Positions 1 through 6,910 of a stretch of DNA of 57,245 bases are shown here, in pieces. Each line of letters opens with the position of its first letter. The stretch's first letter is position 1. The stretch comes from Pyrinomonadaceae bacterium. Lineage in GTDB: Bacteria > Acidobacteriota > Blastocatellia > Pyrinomonadales > Pyrinomonadaceae. The position numbers and the translations under genes are program-made. Under the pieces are notes generated by a model. That model was given only the letters and a program-made list of their open reading frames with translations, was not told where the DNA came from and searched no databases. Where the stretch lies: positions 1 through 57,245 of the forward strand of contig DASVVZ010000256.1 in NCBI GenBank assembly GCA_036389875.1, in the 5' to 3' direction.

Positions 1-2499
1 ACAGAGCATTTCTCCGATCATGAGGTTGACCTACGGAAGAAGCTCGTCGAATGGCTTAAAGCCGAGGGGGTAGAGGTTAGGTGTGACGTAGAATGCGCGG
101 GCGGGGCTGCGGACGTCGTAACGGAGGAAGCGATCTTTGAAATCAAGCACGCGCTTACCCTTGCCGATTTCTATAAGACCTCGAACGATCTGCTCTCTTA
201 CTGGCGGGCGCTTGTCAATTCGGAGCAGCTGGACGATGGGGCCGACGCTATCATCCTGGTTTGTTGTGCGGAAGATTTGAATGCGCTCAAGGCCGCGGCA
301 GACACGGTAGCCGTCATGACGCTGGAAGAGATAATGGTCCCTTCCCCTCCTGAATTCTTCGAGTCTCTCTTAACCCAAGCCAATCAGACAGGCTCAATCG
401 CTGCATTCAGGAAGCTCATTGAAGATAACCAACTCCAGGATGTAACTATTGACAGAAGATTTACCCCGTCACAACGCACCAAGCTCCATGAAGCATTGGA
501 TGCATGTAATGTTTGTGTGTACGCTGGCCTGTCGGATTCTGAAGAGACGAGCGGCATTCTCACACAGCAGATGGATCCGGCCAGGATTAAGACCCACCCA
601 TCGCTTTTAATGCGCGCGCAGGGCCTTGACATAGATCACGTGGAAGAACTGGAGGCGGGCTACAGGGCCGGGCGGACCTACCCTCCTGCTGACATTTTCT
701 TCGACGGTGAAAATTATTGGCTCGCAGACGGAAACCACCGACACGCGGGAGCCACCAGGGCCGGCAAGCTTCTCGACGTTACAGTCCATCATGGGACGTT
801 ACGCGATGCCATCAGATTCGCGCTTGAAGCCAACGTCGAACACGGCCTGAAGCTCACCAACGACGACAAGCGGCTGAAGGTCGTGACGCTGCTATCCGAC
901 CCGGAGTGGTTCAAAGAGAGCGACACCATTCTGGGCGGGATTGCCCATGTTACACAGCAGTTCATAAGCAGCGTGCGCCGTGATCTCGTACCCCTGCTGC
1001 CGGCGCTGGAGCTCAACGAAGGGCAGGAGACGGATGAGACTTTGGCCTCAATGTTGAATGTTCCTGTTGGGCTCGTACGCGTGGTGCGCAGAATACCGAC
1101 GGATGAGCGCGCTTCCCTGACCCAAAATATTTTGAGTGATGACGGGCGCAGGCGCGGCGCCGATGGGGTTGTCAGGTCTATTCCGTCGAAGCCAGCCCAG
1201 CCTCGCGCTGAGGAACCCGAATTATTCTCAGAGGAAAGCGATGCGGCGAATGAATTCGTTGAGGAGACTTCAGCCCAGGCAGCTGAGGCCGCGCCGGCGG
1301 AAAGCAGCGATGAGATCGTCGAGGCCCAAAGGCCCGGCGCAAGTGATGCAGCAGCCGATTCGGTGTCGTCCTCGCCCGAGGCCACCGAACATGGCACTGC
1401 GCTCGCCAAACCTTCCGACGGCGCGCGTGCTGAATCTACCACATCCGGCGGCGGCGAAGCACTCACAGAACAACTCTCGCCGTCATACAGGCTCGCCTCT
1501 CTCTTGAAGAAATGCCCAGAGGGCATGACGACAGAGGAAGTACTGGCGCAGGGCTTCACCATGCATGACATCAACCAGGCCCGGACCGCGCGCGAAATCG
1601 AGCGCCACGAAAACGGGCGATGCTTCTACGTGTGGAAGCCTGCGGACGTCGTCTCGGCCCTCGAAGAATATGGAATGCTCTCCAGACTGGAGCTTGAAGA
1701 TCTCGGCTGCCAGTCCTATGTCATCAACGCGACGCTCTCGGAAGGCCTCATCAGCCAGCCTGAGACTGGCAAATTCACACTCCCCAAAGAGGCTTCCGGC
1801 GACCGTCCCGTGGAGCGAGCCGCTTCCGAATCCCGTCAAGAGACGAGGCCGGAGGCACCGGCCGAGAAGCATCCCGCACAGCAGGCCCCTTCCTCGAGCG
1901 CGCAAGTACAATCGGCGCCCAGGCAGGCTCCGCCCGTCGGGCTCGCAATCGAAAAGGGCCTTAAGAACAGGAAGATGATCATAGGCTTCACATTCATAGC
2001 CGGACTCAAGGGTAAGGTGCAGGCCACGGTAAACGTCGCAGACAACGTGCAGGGGGCAGGGCGTGAAGTCATCCCGCTTGAGGAACTGGTGCTGCCCGAC
2101 CGAGTCCTGAAAATGATTGACTATCAGCTTGGCACCAACATTTTCAATAAGGCAGACACCACCGCGGCTGAGAAAGCGGAGCCCAAGCCCAAAGTCGAGC
2201 GGATATTGGAAGGCTTGAAGGGGGCGAAGGACTTGGAGGCCCTTAACAGGTTGGCCGAGCACTATCACATCGGCAGTTCTAATTTCTATTCGCGGTTTGA
2301 TGCGAAGGACGCCAAGCGTATCACCGACGCGCTGGCCGCGCAGAAGAAAAAGTTTTCACCTGCCTCCAAGAAGAGAGTCTCCACCAAAAAATCCGCGACT
2401 AAGAAGCCGTCGGCGCGCGCGACCAAAGTGTCTGCGAAGAAATCATCCACTAAAGGCTCTAAGAAAGGAGCGCGCTCAAGTACCCGCGCCCGTGCCTGA
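1..2499 (+). CDS. ParB/Srx-like nuclease-domain protein (PRTRC-type) with N-terminal PD-(D/E)xK-like module and Lys-rich C-terminal tail; 5' end probably outside the window
   Basis: Frame 1 has no stop from nt 1 (track ORF starts at TTG 277; first ATG at 316). D-x8-ExK motif ADVVTEEAIFEIKH (112-147). ParB box YWLADGNHRHAGATRAG (DGNHR 727-741). Acidic/Pro/Ala low-complexity centre. Tail KKKFSPASKKRVSTKKSATKKPSARATKVSAKKSSTKGSKK. Confidence 0.75.
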   Translation, partial: TEHFSDHEVDLRKKLVEWLKAEGVEVRCDVECAGGAADVVTEEAIFEIKHALTLADFYKTSNDLLSYWRALVNSEQLDDGADAIILVCCAEDLNALKAAADTVAVMTLEEIMVPSPPEFFESLLTQANQTGSIAAFRKLIEDNQLQDVTIDRRFTPSQRTKLHEALDACNVCVYAGLSDSEETSGILTQQMDPARIKTHPSLLMRAQGLDIDHVEELEAGYRAGRTYPPADIFFDGENYWLADGNHRHAGATRAGKLLDVTVHHGTLRDAIRFALEANVEHGLKLTNDDKRLKVVTLLSDPEWFKESDTILGGIAHVTQQFISSVRRDLVPLLPALELNEGQETDETLASMLNVPVGLVRVVRRIPTDERASLTQNILSDDGRRRGADGVVRSIPSKPAQPRAEEPELFSEESDAANEFVEETSAQAAEAAPAESSDEIVEAQRPGASDAAADSVSSSPEATEHGTALAKPSDGARAESTTSGGGEALTEQLSPSYRLASLLKKCPEGMTTEEVLAQGFTMHDINQARTAREIERHENGRCFYVWKPADVVSALEEYGMLSRLELEDLGCQSYVINATLSEGLISQPETGKFTLPKEASGDRPVERAASESRQETRPEAPAEKHPAQQAPSSSAQVQSAPRQAPPVGLAIEKGLKNRKMIIGFTFIAGLKGKVQATVNVADNVQGAGREVIPLEELVLPDRVLKMIDYQLGTNIFNKADTTAAEKAEPKPKVERILEGLKGAKDLEALNRLAEHYHIGSSNFYSRFDAKDAKRITDALAAQKKKFSPASKKRVSTKKSATKKPSARATKVSAKKSSTKGSKKGARSSTRARA
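1119..1138. repeat. Degenerate copy of the 20-bp palindrome family (GACCCAAAATATTTTGAGTG), inside the parB-like ORF
   Basis: Two mismatches to GACTCAAAATATTTTGAGTC. It is the only copy well inside a coding region. Confidence 0.5.
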
Positions 2500-2540
2500 A
2501 ACACCGCAGAGAGAACAGCATCCGAGGAGGATAAGCATTC

Positions 2541-3020
2541 ATGGCAGTCGTAAAAATTGAAGGTAAAGAAGTGACGCTCCCCGACGAGATCGTCGCGCTC
2601 GGCAAAGAGGCGGTGCGCACGGCTCTTGAGGCTGACTTTCCCGGCGCGGCGAACGCCGACATCCAGATTGAAGGTAAGAAGGGCGGTGGCGCTCCAGCGG
2701 TCGTGACTGTCTCCAAGCGAGCAGCGCCGAAGCAGAATGTGCCGGCACTGGCTGGCAAAGCCACTTCACCTCTCGCGCGAGTCGTCGAATCGCTACTTGG
2801 TGCCCCTGACTATGTAAACCCCGCGATAACGATGGCGGCCGCCTGCCAGTTGGCCGAAACGAGGGGCGACAAGGAATTCTTCGGCCAGATGGCGCGCCGC
2901 GGCGAAATTGAGCGCGCCATCGTGGAGGGGGAGAGAGAGGCTAAGGCTGTACATCGCGCGCTTGCCGTCCTCGGTCAGTCGAAGCCGGCATCGTCTAAGA
3001 CTGTTCCCTTAGGATTCTGA
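2541..3020 (+). CDS. Ubiquitin-like (beta-grasp) candidate with C-terminal extension (PRTRC protein C-like position)
   Basis: N-terminus MAVVKIEGKEVTLPDEIVALGKEAVRTALEADFPGAANADIQIEG resembles small ThiS/MoaD/Ub-like modifiers. GAGGAGG Shine-Dalgarno lies upstream. It sits first in the E2/JAB/E1 cassette. C-terminus is ...TVPLGF. Confidence 0.5.
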   Translation: MAVVKIEGKEVTLPDEIVALGKEAVRTALEADFPGAANADIQIEGKKGGGAPAVVTVSKRAAPKQNVPALAGKATSPLARVVESLLGAPDYVNPAITMAAACQLAETRGDKEFFGQMARRGEIERAIVEGEREAKAVHRALAVLGQSKPASSKTVPLGF

Positions 3021-3023
3021 GAG

Positions 3024-3977
3024 ATGGAAGCTTTAACCACACAGAGCGCGGCCTCCATGCTGCTCGCCGACAAGTCGAAGCTCGGCACGACGGACGCGCG
3101 CTTTTACCTGGCGGGGCGCATGCGCACCAGGACAGCGGCAGGCGCCGTGGAGTATCTGAAGGTACTCTCCACTCATAAGAAGGAGGCTTGGGACGCGCGC
3201 GTAAAACTATCGCTTGACCTGATGAGCATTTACCGCGACCTCTACCCGCGACATTATGCGGCCTCGCAATCGCCAGCTTTTTCGACGGCGCGCGAGCATG
3301 AGTTTTACCGGCTAGTCAACGAGCACCTTTTCCCGCTGGTCGTAGCCGGTGACCGCAGGCACTCGCTCCTTGAGAAGTTAATCGAGCGCGACCCGGACTT
3401 TCTGTTGCCTGCTATCCCCGTCATGGGAACTCAACAGCACGACTGGCTACAACTGGGAGGTTGCTGCCCCTGGGACAATATCCAGCTCGTTTTCCAGTTG
3501 GTGCTGGTACTTGCGGGCCACCCGCTCGGCAGAAGGCATCGCAGCGAGTTTCTCAACTCATACGGGCTGGACGAATCACAGGTCGCGCCGCAATTGGGTG
3601 CGTACGCCTGGACGCACTTCAATTACTGGTGCGCGGTGGCCGGGAACTGGCTGAGCTACCTTCCCCTCGCATTCAAGTTCGTCGGTTACAAGACCGGCTC
3701 GCTATGGCTCGACATTCCGCCCGGGCAGGGGCCCGTGCTGCTGCCCTGGACGCGCCGTAATGTAGGCATGCTCTTCCTCCACCGACGTCAGGCCGAGGAG
3801 ATAAACCAGCAGGTGCTTGACTTCGACCGTTGGCTCCGCGTGACAGGACGGGTCGGCGTCATCCTTGCGATCCAGATGTGGAACGACGCCTACGAGATGG
3901 AGGCCGAATCGGGTCTCACGGGCGTGATGAGGGCGGAAGATTTACAGGACGCTTTAGAGAGGTTGGAGAGAGAATAA
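3024..3977 (+). CDS. Conserved-cassette protein of unknown function (PRTRC protein F-like position)
   Basis: 317-aa ORF starting 3 nt after the upstream stop; its stop overlaps the next start (TAATG at 3975-3979). No motif recognised. Confidence 0.55.
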   Translation: MEALTTQSAASMLLADKSKLGTTDARFYLAGRMRTRTAAGAVEYLKVLSTHKKEAWDARVKLSLDLMSIYRDLYPRHYAASQSPAFSTAREHEFYRLVNEHLFPLVVAGDRRHSLLEKLIERDPDFLLPAIPVMGTQQHDWLQLGGCCPWDNIQLVFQLVLVLAGHPLGRRHRSEFLNSYGLDESQVAPQLGAYAWTHFNYWCAVAGNWLSYLPLAFKFVGYKTGSLWLDIPPGQGPVLLPWTRRNVGMLFLHRRQAEEINQQVLDFDRWLRVTGRVGVILAIQMWNDAYEMEAESGLTGVMRAEDLQDALERLERE

Positions 3978-4726
3978 TGGAAGAGAACCAGCGATTACTC
4001 ATGCCCCGGCAGGACGAACAGTCCTGCCCGACAATTAAATTCTTCGACGGCCAGTTTCTGTTTACGATGGTGACGCTACAGGGCACGAAGATTGAAGCCC
4101 TCCGGAGCGAGGCGGCCGTTCGTGAGGCCTTCACCAACATCCCGGTCGATACGGGCTGGATCAACCAGGACACCACCTGCCGTTCGGTCGTGCGCTGGGG
4201 CGATGGCGGCCGCGGCGAGTGGGCCGTGCTCTACGTACCGCCCGGGCTTCATAAGCTTGAGCTGACGACGGACGCGAAGGCCATTGCCGACAATCTGGAG
4301 CGCATCACGGCGCCTTTGCCCTCCCTCATCTTCTTCGGCGCCGGGACGAAATACTGGCTCTGGGCTCTGAGGGCACCGAAATTCGAACCATACAACGATC
4401 TCATGCGTGCTCCCCTGCCCAACGTCTTCGAGGACGGGGAAGTCTGCTGGGGACCGCACAAGCCACCGGCGTGCACCGGGCGCGCGATTGTGAACGCATG
4501 GGAGCTATTTATCTCCACGACCTTCAGCAACCACGCCGCTTCCGGCAAATCCAGGAAGTATGACGAGGATGTACGCGATGGGCTACGCGAAGCCGCGCGC
4601 TCGGGAGAAAGCCCCTCCTATCCGTCTGAAGACCTTATCCGCTACATGGGGACGGGCCTGAGCATTGACCAGGTGATTAGGGCGTTTACTAAGGATGGCG
4701 AGATTGCGCCCTCAGAGGAAGAATGA
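3977..4726 (+). CDS. E2 (UBC)-like protein, candidate catalytic Cys157
   Basis: Start chosen at the ATG overlapping the upstream TAA. LPNVFEDGEVCWG (Cys codon 4445-4447) resembles the E2 motif HPN..G.IC. Flanked by Ubl-like, JAB and E1 genes. Confidence 0.6.
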   Translation: MEENQRLLMPRQDEQSCPTIKFFDGQFLFTMVTLQGTKIEALRSEAAVREAFTNIPVDTGWINQDTTCRSVVRWGDGGRGEWAVLYVPPGLHKLELTTDAKAIADNLERITAPLPSLIFFGAGTKYWLWALRAPKFEPYNDLMRAPLPNVFEDGEVCWGPHKPPACTGRAIVNAWELFISTTFSNHAASGKSRKYDEDVRDGLREAARSGESPSYPSEDLIRYMGTGLSIDQVIRAFTKDGEIAPSEEE

Positions 4727-5385
4727 TCACGTCGGGTTTCAATTCTTACCAGTTCGCGCTGCGCGGTCAGCCCCTGCCGGAGGTGGATGACTCCATGGCC
4801 GTCTGCTACTTAATCGGCGCAAACGGGGTGCTCGCGCGCTCGCGCCGCCCCGGGCTGGAGGTGGGGTTGCCCGTCGGCGTCCACTTCCAGCAGCTCAGGG
4901 GCCTGGAGCCCGTCACGCCTTACGTGAAGTGGGACCTGCCGCGTGTTCCGATGCAACTGGTAGAGCTAATGCTCACGGTCTCGCGCGCGTGCGCTTCTCC
5001 AGAGCCGACAGAGGCGCTCTTCTACCTGAACCATGGCGAGCCGCATACCAGTGACGCAATCATAAGCGAAGGCGGTTGGAACCTGGAGGCACCGCCGCAG
5101 CGCGCGAGCCGGGAGTGGGTTGAACCCGAAGAGACTGGTGCGGGCTCTTCTACCGAGCGCGCGTTGATAGAAGTCCACAGCCACCATTACATGAGGGCGG
5201 AATTCTCTCCCGGTGATGACACCGACGAGCTGGGCTGGTTCCGGGTCTATGGGGTGATCGGCAACATCTTCGAGAGGCCTGAGTTGCGCGTGCGCGTCTC
5301 ACTCTTCGGCCACGGGTGTGAATGGCCGGCCTCCGAATTCTTTGAACTGCCGACTGAATTAAATGACTGCTTGAAAGGTAACTAA
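4723..5385 (+). CDS. JAB/MPN (JAMM) metallopeptidase
   Basis: Complete JAMM motif H-S-H-x7-S-x2-D in EVHSHHYMRAEFSPGDD (5176-5217), with an upstream Glu (PTEALFYL). ATGA overlap with the E2-like gene. Confidence 0.8.
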   Translation: MITSGFNSYQFALRGQPLPEVDDSMAVCYLIGANGVLARSRRPGLEVGLPVGVHFQQLRGLEPVTPYVKWDLPRVPMQLVELMLTVSRACASPEPTEALFYLNHGEPHTSDAIISEGGWNLEAPPQRASREWVEPEETGAGSSTERALIEVHSHHYMRAEFSPGDDTDELGWFRVYGVIGNIFERPELRVRVSLFGHGCEWPASEFFELPTELNDCLKGN

Positions 5386-5388
5386 GAG

Positions 5389-6351
5389 ATGGGAAAGAAG
5401 GGTAAAAAATTTCAGGGCCGCAAGGCGCAGCCCCGGCCAGTAAAGACGGAGGTGCTCCCCACCCTCGACACGAACTATCTGAAGGCATCGGCGGTAAAGC
5501 TCCCCGACTGGGAGTTCGTGCAGATTGTGCAGGTGGGTGCCGGTGGTGGCGGCTCCTTCATGGCGATGCATATAGGGCGGCTGATGCACTCGCTATACAG
5601 GATGGGCAAAGCCTCGCACTTAACTATCGTTGATCCGGACATAGTGAAGGAGGAGAACGTCGGGCGATCGCTCTTCTGCGACGCGGAGTTCGAGGCCGCG
5701 GTGCCGAAAGCGGAGGCCCTGGCGCGCCGCTACGGCCAGGCGTGGGGCTTGAACGTCAGCTCTTACGTGGGCGAGTTCGACGAGAGCATGATTCTCGGCC
5801 GTGAGCTTACAGTAGTGGTTGGCTGCGTAGACAACGCGCGGGCGCGTCAGACTATCAACGACGTGCTCAAGCACAACCCCGAAGATCCAAACGAGCAGCC
5901 CCCCTCCTTCTGGTGGCTCGACAACGGCAACGTCAGCAACTTCGGCCGCGTGCTCTTAGGCTCGGCCTACTCCGCCGAGCACGTGCGTGGGGCATTCCCC
6001 GAGCCCGGAAAATGCGTAGCACTCCCAAGCCCCGCGATTCAATATCCGGGCCTTTTAGAGCCGCAGCCCGAAGAGGAGGCTGCGAGCGCCGACGGGATGA
6101 GCTGCGCGGAGCGGGCGGCGGCGAACCTCCAGAGCCTGAACATCAACGCCGCGATTGTCATCCAGGCCGCAGACATGCTCACGAGACTCCTGGTCACCAG
6201 AGACCTCAAACGCTTCGCGTGCGAAGTGAATCTGTCGTCGGGCGTAATGAAAAGCTCTTACTGCACTCCCGAAGAAGTGGCGCGCGCATCGCACAAGCCA
6301 ACTTCCTTTCTGACGAAGCAAAACAGGCAGGCGGCAGTAAATTATAACTGA
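5389..6351 (+). CDS. ThiF/MoeB/E1-like adenylyltransferase
   Basis: Rossmann loop VQVGAGGGGSF (5533-5556), then DPDIVKEENVGRSLF and VGCVDNARARQTIN, as in the ThiF/E1 family. Confidence 0.85.
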   Translation: MGKKGKKFQGRKAQPRPVKTEVLPTLDTNYLKASAVKLPDWEFVQIVQVGAGGGGSFMAMHIGRLMHSLYRMGKASHLTIVDPDIVKEENVGRSLFCDAEFEAAVPKAEALARRYGQAWGLNVSSYVGEFDESMILGRELTVVVGCVDNARARQTINDVLKHNPEDPNEQPPSFWWLDNGNVSNFGRVLLGSAYSAEHVRGAFPEPGKCVALPSPAIQYPGLLEPQPEEEAASADGMSCAERAAANLQSLNINAAIVIQAADMLTRLLVTRDLKRFACEVNLSSGVMKSSYCTPEEVARASHKPTSFLTKQNRQAAVNYN

Positions 6352-6441
6352 CCAAAATAAGGTAAGAGTTGAGAAAAAGGGCGCGGCCCCCGTTTGCCTG
6401 TGAAGACTTTCGAGGGCCGCGGTCTATGCCTTTCGGCGTGA

Positions 6442-6678
6442 TTATCGACGCAAGCGTTTGACGGAGCGTATTACCTGCGGAGCGTTTTGCAGCACCAGAC
6501 GGGCTATCTCTGTTACGTTATTGTCGTTCGGGTTGGAGTAAATGCCGTAGATTCCGGTGATGAAGAAGAAGGTCAGGATGGTGAGTCTCAGACTTTCAGC
6601 CAGCATGTCGAAAATACGACGGGGTTGTCGGTTGGACGAGGCGTGGTGGATCCACGTCGCCTTAGATCTAGTTTTCAC
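6442..6678 (-). CDS. Small membrane protein (hypothetical)
   Basis: GTG start preceded by AAGGAAA. One hydrophobic helix, LTILTFFFITGIYGIY. Confidence 0.35.
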   Translation of the reverse strand: MKTRSKATWIHHASSNRQPRRIFDMLAESLRLTILTFFFITGIYGIYSNPNDNNVTEIARLVLQNAPQVIRSVKRLRR

Positions 6679-6910
6679 GATAGTTTCCTTTGCCCCATTG
6701 CAGGGCGGTCTAGAGGGTGTGAGCTACAAACGACACAAGAGGGGCTTGCGGAGAATTGAGGTTGCTCTCAAAAGCTAATGTGCCATTCAGATTAATGACC
6801 GGGAAAGGACTCCCCGGCTAGGCCCCTGAGGGTAAGAGCGCGTGCTCTTTCGGAGCCGGCGGCAAGATAACAATAATTGAACTGCTTGACAAGTGGCCGA
6901 ACGTCAGGTG

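Follow-up and report, generated by a model that had tools for sequence, protein, structure and literature searches.

A ubiquitin-like module fused to a helical partner with a Gly-Phe end in a divergent PRTRC-like cassette of a Pyrinomonadaceae bacterium

Based on the analysis reported here, we suggest a model for a 159-amino-acid (aa) protein that is encoded beside E2-, JAB- and E1-like genes in a 57,245-nucleotide stretch of DNA from a Pyrinomonadaceae bacterium (assembly GCA_036389875.1, contig DASVVZ010000256.1, positions 1 to 57,245, forward strand; this whole stretch is referred to as the window). In this model, to which we give an even chance, the protein is a fusion within a PRTRC-like cassette, its N-terminal ubiquitin-like (Ubl) module is cut off at the domain junction, the Gly-Phe end of its helical partner is a docking tail, and an internal Gly-Gly-Gly is a turn. 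By this analysis, the modifier should have its end precisely at residue 65, where the two domains join. A preliminary description of the stretch had proposed two other sites, the internal Gly-Gly-Gly and the penultimate Gly; as judged by alignment, both missed the position homologous to the conjugation Gly of this protein family and are corrected here.

A two-part protein with a divergent Ubl module

The protein is encoded on the forward strand by an ATG-initiated open reading frame (ORF) at 2541..3020, stop codon included, and a Shine-Dalgarno sequence, GAGGAGG, is read directly on the same strand at 2524..2530, ~10 nt 5' of the ATG. The ORF list and direct reading of the sequence agree with the preliminary description of a 159-aa ORF with KKGGGAP at residues 46-52 and a ...TVPLGF end: K46 K47 G48 G49 G50 A51 P52 are the codons at 2676-2696, the C-terminus is ...SSKTVPLGF, and the last codons, act gtt ccc tta gga ttc tga (T154 V155 P156 L157 G158 F159 stop), lie at 3000-3020; the next ORF begins 3 nt later, at 3024. 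Because homologues are found by sequence as well as profile searches, the ORF is a real conserved gene and not a chance ORF. Twenty homologues are recovered at E<=0.01, with identities of 34-92% over aligned columns, and a profile search of 1.84 billion cluster representatives gave 245 matches at E<=1e-3 and 87 at E<=1e-10. Throughout, residue numbers are those of the 159-aa window protein, and conservation counts by column refer to an alignment of 121 fused relatives. The gene is present in single copy in the genome (4.29 Mb, 93% complete), and no second Ubl, of the same or of the canonical type, was found there. A scan of genome_contigs with the close alignment gave no relative.

The proposal that the protein has two parts is supported by structure prediction. 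In an AlphaFold2 model based on the 121-sequence alignment (mean predicted local distance difference test score (pLDDT) of 87.9), the protein is built from two domains; with a 20-sequence alignment, the N-terminal part was poorly modelled. The N-terminal part of the former model contains strands at residues 2-6, 9-13, 40-44 and 54-58 and helices at 15-20, 22-30 and 34-38 (pLDDT of blocks 87-95), giving a beta-beta-alpha-beta-beta topology. It is followed by a variable, Ala/Pro-rich linker, residues 66-76 (2736..2768, + strand), in which alignment columns are gapped and unconserved and confidence is low (pLDDT 55 for block 61-70 and 67 for block 71-80). The C-terminal part, previously described as ~90 aa long and helical-looking, is modelled as four helices (77-87, 94-107, 113-120 and 122-145; pLDDT 90-98), after which comes a tail, residues 146-159, with a pLDDT of ~66. 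When this model was compared with PDB and BFVD in Foldseek, neither part had a match at E<=1e-3, and a few ubiquitin-domain entries far down the list at E>0.5 are not counted as support. Similarly, a sequence-profile search of PDB returned nothing significant (best E 0.043, to an unrelated chain). Because Foldseek gave no fold match, the beta-grasp assignment of the N-terminal part rests on topology and sequence homology.

Judged from profile homology and modelled topology, residues 1-65 (2541..2735, + strand) appear to be a divergent beta-grasp Ubl of the PRTRC_C / Prok_Ub type and the ubiquitin-like modifier of the cassette, in line with the beta-grasp-like segment suggested earlier. In hhalign, a profile of residues 1-66 of the family matched a profile of 120 canonical PRTRC_C sequences with a probability of 91.9% (E 7e-7, 55 columns), and the register is such that K-R-A-G-x-K-G of the family lands exactly on R-A-A-G-A-K-G of the canonical proteins. 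The C-terminal domain, used as a negative control, matched the canonical PRTRC_C with a probability of 0.05%. In addition, a hidden Markov model (HMM) of the N-terminal domain picks out the protein C ORF of plasmid pMOL28 at E 0.0018, and Prok_Ub is annotated on 11% of the members of the ESM-Atlas cluster that holds the 159-aa protein. Thus, a remote homology to Prok_Ub / PRTRC_C exists at the profile level and in the correct register. The location of the gene beside genes for an E2 of family D, a JAB peptidase and a ThiF-type E1 is also that of Prok_Ub / PRTRC_C genes, and the same synteny is seen in 25 related loci.

The curated models do not by themselves recognize the protein as a Ubl. The window protein has no Pfam or NCBIfam match even at E<=10, including Prok_Ub (PF14454) and PRTRC_C (TIGR03738). 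Searches with this protein and the neighbouring 317-aa protein described below gave no match in PHROGs and, in PADLOC, nothing but a meaningless 15.5-bit match. Only two of the 121 relatives match TIGR03738 (best E 5.2e-4) and three match PF14454 (best E 0.0039). Together with the lack of a significant fold match, these results would fit a reading in which the N-terminal part is no Ubl and resembles one by coincidence, the protein being some unrelated accessory factor in the cassette. We consider this very unlikely, because the profile-profile match is in the correct end-to-end register with a clean negative control, and because the N-terminal domain takes the slot of protein C in the cassette. 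Moreover, stand-alone forms of the domain, 63-70 residues long, stop at Lys-Gly (KG) or a little beyond it (2 residues further in locus L003), and the tail pattern co-varies with JAB, as described below.

The predicted end of the modifier

The canonical PRTRC_C proteins (n=120) end in ...RAAGAKG followed by variable tails of 0-13 residues, and eight of them end exactly at KG. A conserved RAAGAKG with variable tails is the usual signature of a peptidase-matured modifier. Because the canonical AGxKG end aligns with RAAPKQ of the window protein, the conjugation Gly of the family would lie at position 65, and neither in the internal GGG nor at G158. By alignment register and column counts, K64-Q65 of the window protein (2730..2735, + strand) is homologous to the C-terminal Lys-Gly of PRTRC_C-type Ubls. 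K64 is kept in 119/121 relatives, and position 65 is Gly in 108, Gln in seven, Ser in four and Ala in two of them. The position right after KG varies and is occupied by small residues (A 42, N 18, S 16, G 11). All Gln and Ser residues at position 65 belong to the window protein and its 10 closest relatives, which read RAAPKQ or RAAPKS. In other words, the position of K64-Q65 is where JAB is predicted to cleave, and E1 to activate, members of the family. The window protein has Gln instead of Gly there and hence lacks the conserved Gly that is typical of the C-terminus of the Prok_Ub / PRTRC_C domain. G62 is also lost in this clade (RAAPK[QS]), and R60-A-A-P-K64 is identical across it while the linker that follows drifts. 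All 11 members have the fused architecture.

By contrast, the internal G48-G49-G50 (2682..2690, + strand) lies between the strands at 40-44 and 54-58 of the AlphaFold2 model and appears, from the model and the alignment, to be the turn of the beta3-beta4 hairpin and not a processing site. We give next to no credence to the suggestion that a cut here exposes the Gly that is conjugated. Three glycines are present at this site and G50 is moderately conserved (92/121), but G48 and G49 are Gly in only 9 and 27 of the 121 relatives, so that of the two Gly sites proposed for inspection in homologues, the internal GGG is not invariant. In addition, a cut within the hairpin would remove the last strand, and in hhalign the GGG aligns with an internal 'DG' turn of canonical PRTRC_C and not with its end.

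What follows the terminal Gly position of the Ubl is linked to the presence of JAB. This comparison covers the 25 loci with a readable cassette, i.e. the window, five metagenome contigs and 19 cyanobacterial plasmids. In 22 of them, the Ubl continues beyond this position, be it into a tail of 2-16 residues, the Gly-Phe (GF) domain or a different domain, and every one of these 22 has a JAB gene between the E2 and E1 genes. In the remaining three loci, L009, L012 and L029, the Ubl ends exactly at KG, and in the first two of these (L009:2123-3968, a soil metagenome contig; L012:5160-6867, Planktothrix agardhii plasmid p1) JAB is cleanly lost and E2 abuts E1. No JAB of the cassette type was found on the whole 119.6-kb Planktothrix plasmid, and the same query found JAB on two control plasmids (E 2.7e-166 and 4.3e-52); the absence of JAB in L009 applies to the 9,064 of the contig's 30,073 bases that were checked. 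In an E1 tree of 24 of the 25 loci and the canonical locus (L005, in which E1 lies beyond the contig end, was left out), the sister of L012 is L014, which has JAB and a KG+VK end, and the sister of L009 is L011, which has JAB and 16 residues after KG. These two independent contrasts agree with maturation of the Ubl by a JAB cut after KG and are suggestive, not statistically strong. In L029, JAB is present; JAB may also deconjugate the modifier, which would explain this locus.

The Gly-Phe partner and the fate of the junction

The C-terminal part consists of a four-helix domain, residues 77-145 (2769..2975, + strand), with the near-invariant residues L85, N93, P94 and G130, and a flexible tail, residues 146-159 (2976..3017, + strand), with V155-P156-x-G158-F159 as the free C-terminus. 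P156 is present in 104/121 relatives. The four-helix domain belongs to no Pfam or NCBIfam family and, as mentioned, has no fold match at E<=1e-3; an HMM of the domain found nothing in the canonical pMOL28 locus (n=1 locus). The penultimate Gly and the final Phe are conserved among homologues: 133/144 proteins with this domain end in GF with nothing beyond, 6/144 end in Gly followed by V, L or M, and the five that end otherwise include two fragments that stop mid-domain. Among the 24 loci with the domain, 20 have the GF end, both JAB-less loci included. The remaining four, L023:3369-3815, L031:3237-3683, L032:3372-3815 and L033:3369-3815, lie on Nostocales plasmids, form a subclade that includes pCC7120beta of Nostoc PCC 7120, and encode fused proteins that end in YPVV or YPVL, without Gly, next to intact E2, JAB and E1 genes. 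No Lys that could serve as an acceptor is found among the near-invariant columns of the domain in the 121-sequence alignment, and K153, its sole tabulated Lys column, is Lys in 25/121. We also considered a UBA domain and dropped this for want of support, the match of the family profile to the ubiquilin-1 UBA chain being non-significant (E 0.33).

From the alignments, the last residue of this tail is under selection and always hydrophobic, while the residues after KG of the Ubl are small and variable. Because GF is kept without JAB, because Gly is absent from the YPVV/YPVL ends and because the last residue is selected, we suggest that Gly-Phe is probably a C-terminal hydrophobic docking tail that tethers the partner to another cassette component, and not a hidden Ubl terminus. 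The idea that G158-F159 marks the end of the Ubl fares poorly for a further reason, in that it belongs to a different module, which is a separate gene in 8/25 loci.

In a different scenario, JAB or another peptidase would remove Phe159, and the whole protein or the freed helical domain would be adenylated and conjugated via Gly158. G158 and F159 are near-invariant and in 133/144 proteins at the extreme C-terminus; the trimming of the GG-CF end of QbsE by the JAMM enzyme QbsD, described in part of PMC5925218, is a precedent for a Phe-ended tail; a CD-NTase, which is not a beta-grasp protein, is an E1 substrate of Cap2 with a single terminal Gly or Ala, as described in part of PMC10097602; and the clade of the window protein lost G65, yet its enzymes persist. 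However, GF stays in both JAB-less cassettes, L009 and L012, while the four Nostocales cassettes with intact enzymes lack the Gly, so that neither a Gly wherever the enzymes are present nor a need for the peptidase is observed. Also, conservation extends to the terminal residue (Phe, or else V, L or M), while a removable cap would be expected to vary like the tails after KG, and the residue after KG is small and variable, unlike Phe. We consider use of G158 improbable.

The two modules also occur apart. In the 25 loci, the Ubl is fused to the GF domain in 16, fused to another domain in one and split from the GF domain in eight, and in the split loci the Ubl gene is directly upstream of the gene for the GF domain. 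As its own gene, the four-helix domain has 81-94 codons (L003, L006, L008, L009, L011, L012, L014, L026, L028 and L029); in L006, a locus not counted with the 25 because it is too short, a stop codon in frame follows right after ...PKG. On the E1 tree, the split state corresponds to three changes, and well-supported branches force at least two. When 168 stored proteins of the family were sorted with the domain HMMs, 135 had both domains, nine the C-terminal domain only, four the N-terminal domain only and 20 the N-terminal domain with an unrelated domain. Eight of the nine C-only proteins have a start residue (Met or Val) of their own and a length of 81-87 residues. In the 20 proteins with another domain, the foreign part always comes after ...KG; for instance, a LuxR/GerE helix-turn-helix (HTH) domain follows the Ubl in P0037 (37.3 bits) and a Lar restriction-alleviation domain in P0040 (30.7 bits), both above the Pfam cutoffs. 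By these comparisons, the 159-aa protein is a natural fusion of two separable cassette components, and the Ubl may be a cleavable N-terminal module for varied cargo. Three of the 20 other-cargo fusions share a Cys/His-rich domain, and two of these end in ...TGGQ or ...TGGV. Fusions of the Ubl to other cargo are also seen at L008:1534-2088 and L019:3522-3971.

In the mechanism that we propose for the family, the Ubl would be made with a tail of 2-16 residues, the Gly-Phe partner or other cargo after Lys-Gly. The JAB peptidase would cut behind the Gly, in the manner of deubiquitinases acting on ubiquitin fusion precursors, and E1 and then E2 would activate and transfer the freed Ubl. The partner, in turn, could be docked onto another cassette component by its Gly-Phe tail. 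We infer the JAB cut after KG and the handling of the freed Ubl by E1 and E2 from the comparisons described above. In the clade of the window protein, the junction might still be recognised by JAB and E1, with a cut at or next to K64-Q65 and an unusual specificity. Such continued recognition is suggested because the enzymes are intact, there is no alternative Ubl in the genome and R60-K64 is perfectly conserved. This is the reading that we favour for the clade, but it is the least certain step, and we rate it at somewhat less than an even chance.

Several points weigh against the proposed mechanism. The homology of the Ubl is purely at the profile level, with no direct Pfam or NCBIfam match of the window protein at E<=10, and Foldseek gave no significant beta-grasp match. 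The correlation with JAB rests on two independent losses, and in L029 JAB is retained although the Ubl ends at KG. Finally, the window protein has Gln, and its 10 closest relatives Gln or Ser, where Gly is expected. In Cap2, the one bacterial E1 system in which this was tested, conjugation was abolished when Ser, Val, Arg or Trp took the place of the terminal Gly, and Ala alone was tolerated (part of PMC10097602); because of this, a canonical cut and activation at K-Q is doubtful.

The loss of G65 could also have made the junction uncleavable. In this case, the protein would be a permanently tethered Ubl-domain protein that is never conjugated. It would act as a whole, its Ubl and helical domains serving as a scaffold or regulator for E1, E2, JAB or the adjacently encoded 317-aa protein, similar to UBL-domain proteins of eukaryotes. 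Position 65 is Gln or Ser in 11/11 members of the clade, all of them fused and all without G62, and a terminal Ser blocks conjugation in the Cap2 system (described in part of PMC10097602). There are also very weak UBA-like hints (one of the 121 relatives matches UBA_HOIP at E 0.0058, and the ubiquilin-1 UBA chain is matched at the E-value given above), neither of them significant. On the other hand, the motifs of E1, E2 and JAB are kept in the two clade loci in which they are visible, the window and L004, and with no other Ubl in the genome these enzymes would be left without a modifier. Also, the identity of R60-A-A-P-K64 across the clade while the linker drifts suggests that the tail is still recognised. 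We regard permanent tethering as possible but doubtful, and as nearly as likely as cleavage at K64-Q65; the option, raised in the preliminary description, that the protein is an adaptor or a target is thus a live possibility for this clade.

A broader scheme, which appears rather unlikely to us, combines these elements. In this scheme, class 6d cassettes would use the Ubl as a cleavable pro-domain for cargo (the GF partner, Lar-type, LuxR-type HTH and other domains), JAB would free cargo and modifier together on a mobile element, and the GF protein would be a hitherto unrecognised core subunit that docks by its free hydrophobic end. The clade of the window protein would then be a Gly-to-Gln/Ser variant that is permanently tethered, as a bacterial counterpart of eukaryotic UBL-domain adaptors that evolves out of a conjugatable modifier.

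Cassette context and comparison with known systems

Six co-directional genes make up the cassette in the window, i.e. those for a ParB-like protein, the 159-aa protein, a 317-aa protein, E2, JAB and E1. The co-encoded JAB peptidase of the preliminary description is confirmed, as part of an E2/JAB/E1 cassette at 3977-6351. The ParB-like ORF is open at the start of the window (1..2499, + strand); it has no Pfam or NCBIfam match and was identified by BLAST synteny in L004-L008 and L011. The conserved 317-aa protein (3024..3977, + strand), also without a Pfam or NCBIfam match (even at E<=10), occupies by synteny the slot of protein F in the canonical PRTRC cassette. Both the ParB-like ORF and the 317-aa protein keep their synteny across the related metagenome loci. 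The E2-like protein (3977..4726, + strand) matches Prok-E2_D above the Pfam cutoff (E 1.7e-22) and PRTRC_B with 49.9 bits (cutoff 131.45). The JAB/JAMM peptidase (4723..5385, + strand) has weak matches to PRTRC_A (37.6 bits, cutoff 101.8) and Prok-JAB, and the E1-like ThiF adenylyltransferase (5389..6351, + strand) resembles PRTRC_ThiF (123.5 bits, cutoff 144.75). Intact in the window and conserved among relatives are the JAB motif HSHH-x6-S-x2-D, the E2 Cys motif and the Gly loop, VDNAxAR and SC motifs of E1. The catalytic motifs of all three enzymes are kept in both visible loci of the Gln/Ser clade.

The canonical PRTRC cassette of the Cupriavidus plasmid pMOL28 encodes ParB, E (155 aa), C (74 aa, Prok_Ub), F, B, A and ThiF. 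The models for PRTRC ParB, E, C and F have no match in the window cassette, which falls short of the full PRTRC definition (TIGR03734-03742, seven components at or above the NCBIfam cutoffs). Two candidates for the missing proteins were rejected, both by hhalign against a single-sequence target and hence as weak negatives: the 317-aa protein as PRTRC_F (probability 0.2%) and a PRTRC_E hidden in the C-terminal part of the ParB-like ORF (probability <=0.05%). PADLOC and PHROGs do not recognise the cassette, the best PADLOC result being a weak E1-domain similarity (E 1.7e-6). As far as homology and synteny tell, the window cassette is a divergent relative of the canonical PRTRC cassette, i.e. of class 6d of Iyer, Burroughs and Aravind (2006), whose description in part of PMC1779556 combines JAB, E1 and E2 with a small beta-grasp protein that has a conserved Gly at its C-terminus. 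In L003 (4072-4389, Pseudanabaena pPg_04), the split Ubl gene is directly preceded by a 105-aa ORF that looks, as judged by eye, like the N-terminal portion of canonical PRTRC protein E; it has no NCBIfam match.

The design of the window system and of PRTRC_C / Prok_Ub is similar, with a domain of ~65 residues that in the window protein is a predicted beta-grasp, a slot upstream of an E2 of family D, JAB and a ThiF-type E1, and in the family of the window protein an R/K-A-G-x-K-G tail motif that aligns in register. PRTRC_C cassettes, like the relatives of the window cassette, are found in a mobile-element setting, on conjugative plasmids. However, the window protein has an extra fused helical domain of ~85 residues, which was not found in pMOL28 (n=1), its terminal Gly is replaced by Gln and it lies below detection by both curated models. 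In the window cassette, moreover, proteins E and F are not detectable, unlike in the canonical one. Class 6d / PRTRC cassettes were predicted in 2006 and are widespread on plasmids and integrative elements. A search of full-text literature on PRTRC, with relevance judged by title or abstract, found no work on mechanism among the papers listed, a search for PRTRC with ubiquitin found nothing relevant, and in another search the 2006 paper alone was relevant. As far as this literature goes, the Ubl module would be a divergent member of a known and experimentally untouched family, Prok_Ub / PRTRC_C of class 6d.

In eukaryotes, ubiquitin is also made as fusion precursors, i.e. as ubiquitin-ribosomal protein fusions and polyubiquitin, that are processed by deubiquitinases. 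As in the family of the window protein, the Ubl is encoded N-terminal to another protein or a short tail, and a dedicated peptidase, by inference in the bacterial family, cuts after the last Gly and frees both parts. The comparison extends to tail-less genes where the peptidase is missing. However, in the family of the window protein the end is K-G and not G-G, the peptidase would be a JAMM metalloprotease of the same operon, and the cargo seen most often is a partner protein specific to the cassette. A cleaved fusion would be the counterpart, in bacteria, of ubiquitin fusion precursors, and an uncleaved one would show a modifier turning into an adaptor domain. The natural variants, i.e. tail-less Ubls with JAB lost, Gly-to-Gln/Ser fusions and YPVV tails, are ready-made controls.

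A JAMM enzyme and a Phe-ended extension also meet in the thioquinolobactin system, in which, as proposed in part of PMC5925218, QbsD, which is encoded with an E1-type system, trims a GG-CF extension from the beta-grasp carrier QbsE. The tail of QbsE is directly on the beta-grasp domain, whereas the Gly-Phe of the window family is on a separate helical domain, survives the loss of JAB and can be replaced by a Gly-free tail. The Bil/Bub operons and type II CBASS with Cap2/Cap3 resemble the window cassette in encoding E1, E2, a peptidase and a modifier in one operon, and according to part of PMC10097602 Cap2 is a bacterial E1 that requires Gly or Ala at the terminus of its substrate. As in the window protein, further domains are fused to the C-terminus of some Bil/Bub Ubls, among them E2 domains (part of bioRxiv 10.1101/2024.11.21.623966). 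The protein families differ, however, the window's E1 having the weak PADLOC similarity noted above and its E2 being of family D, and cassettes of the window type are found in a plasmid or integrative conjugative element (ICE) setting of replication and partition, not in known defence islands.

Because such fusions are known in Bil/Bub operons, the principle of a C-terminal domain fused to a bacterial Ubl is not new. What appears new relative to the literature that we found is that the Ubl has repeatedly been joined to, and separated from, a conserved partner with a GF tail, and that it also forms the N-terminal module of proteins with other cargo domains. The natural variants, both the JAB-less, tail-less ones and the Gly-to-Gln/Ser clade of the window protein, appear to be new as well. 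In the GF-tailed protein, the analysis identifies a new conserved partner module with a near-invariant free Gly-Phe end.

The window's E1 matched 169 plasmids in PLSDB. On cyanobacterial plasmids (surroundings read in L003, L012-L014, L017, L018, L021, L023, L026-L029 and L031-L033), the cassettes sit among genes of replication and establishment, i.e. for SSB, a siphovirus Gp157-family protein, a primase-polymerase, CyRepA1 and the beta, gamma/tau and delta subunits of DNA polymerase III. These surroundings hint at a role in replication or establishment rather than in classical defence. In L014 (6946-10143, Oscillatoria nigro-viridis pOSC7112.01), the genes directly 3' of the cassette E1, on the opposite strand, form a CBASS-like pair; their annotations are DncV-like nucleotidyltransferase and SAVED-domain protein. 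Finally, in L034 ('Nostoc azollae' 0708 pAzo01, ~3196-6693), the entire cassette has fallen into short fragments, with a truncated Ubl fusion and broken E2 and E1 genes, and looks like a case of pseudogenisation.

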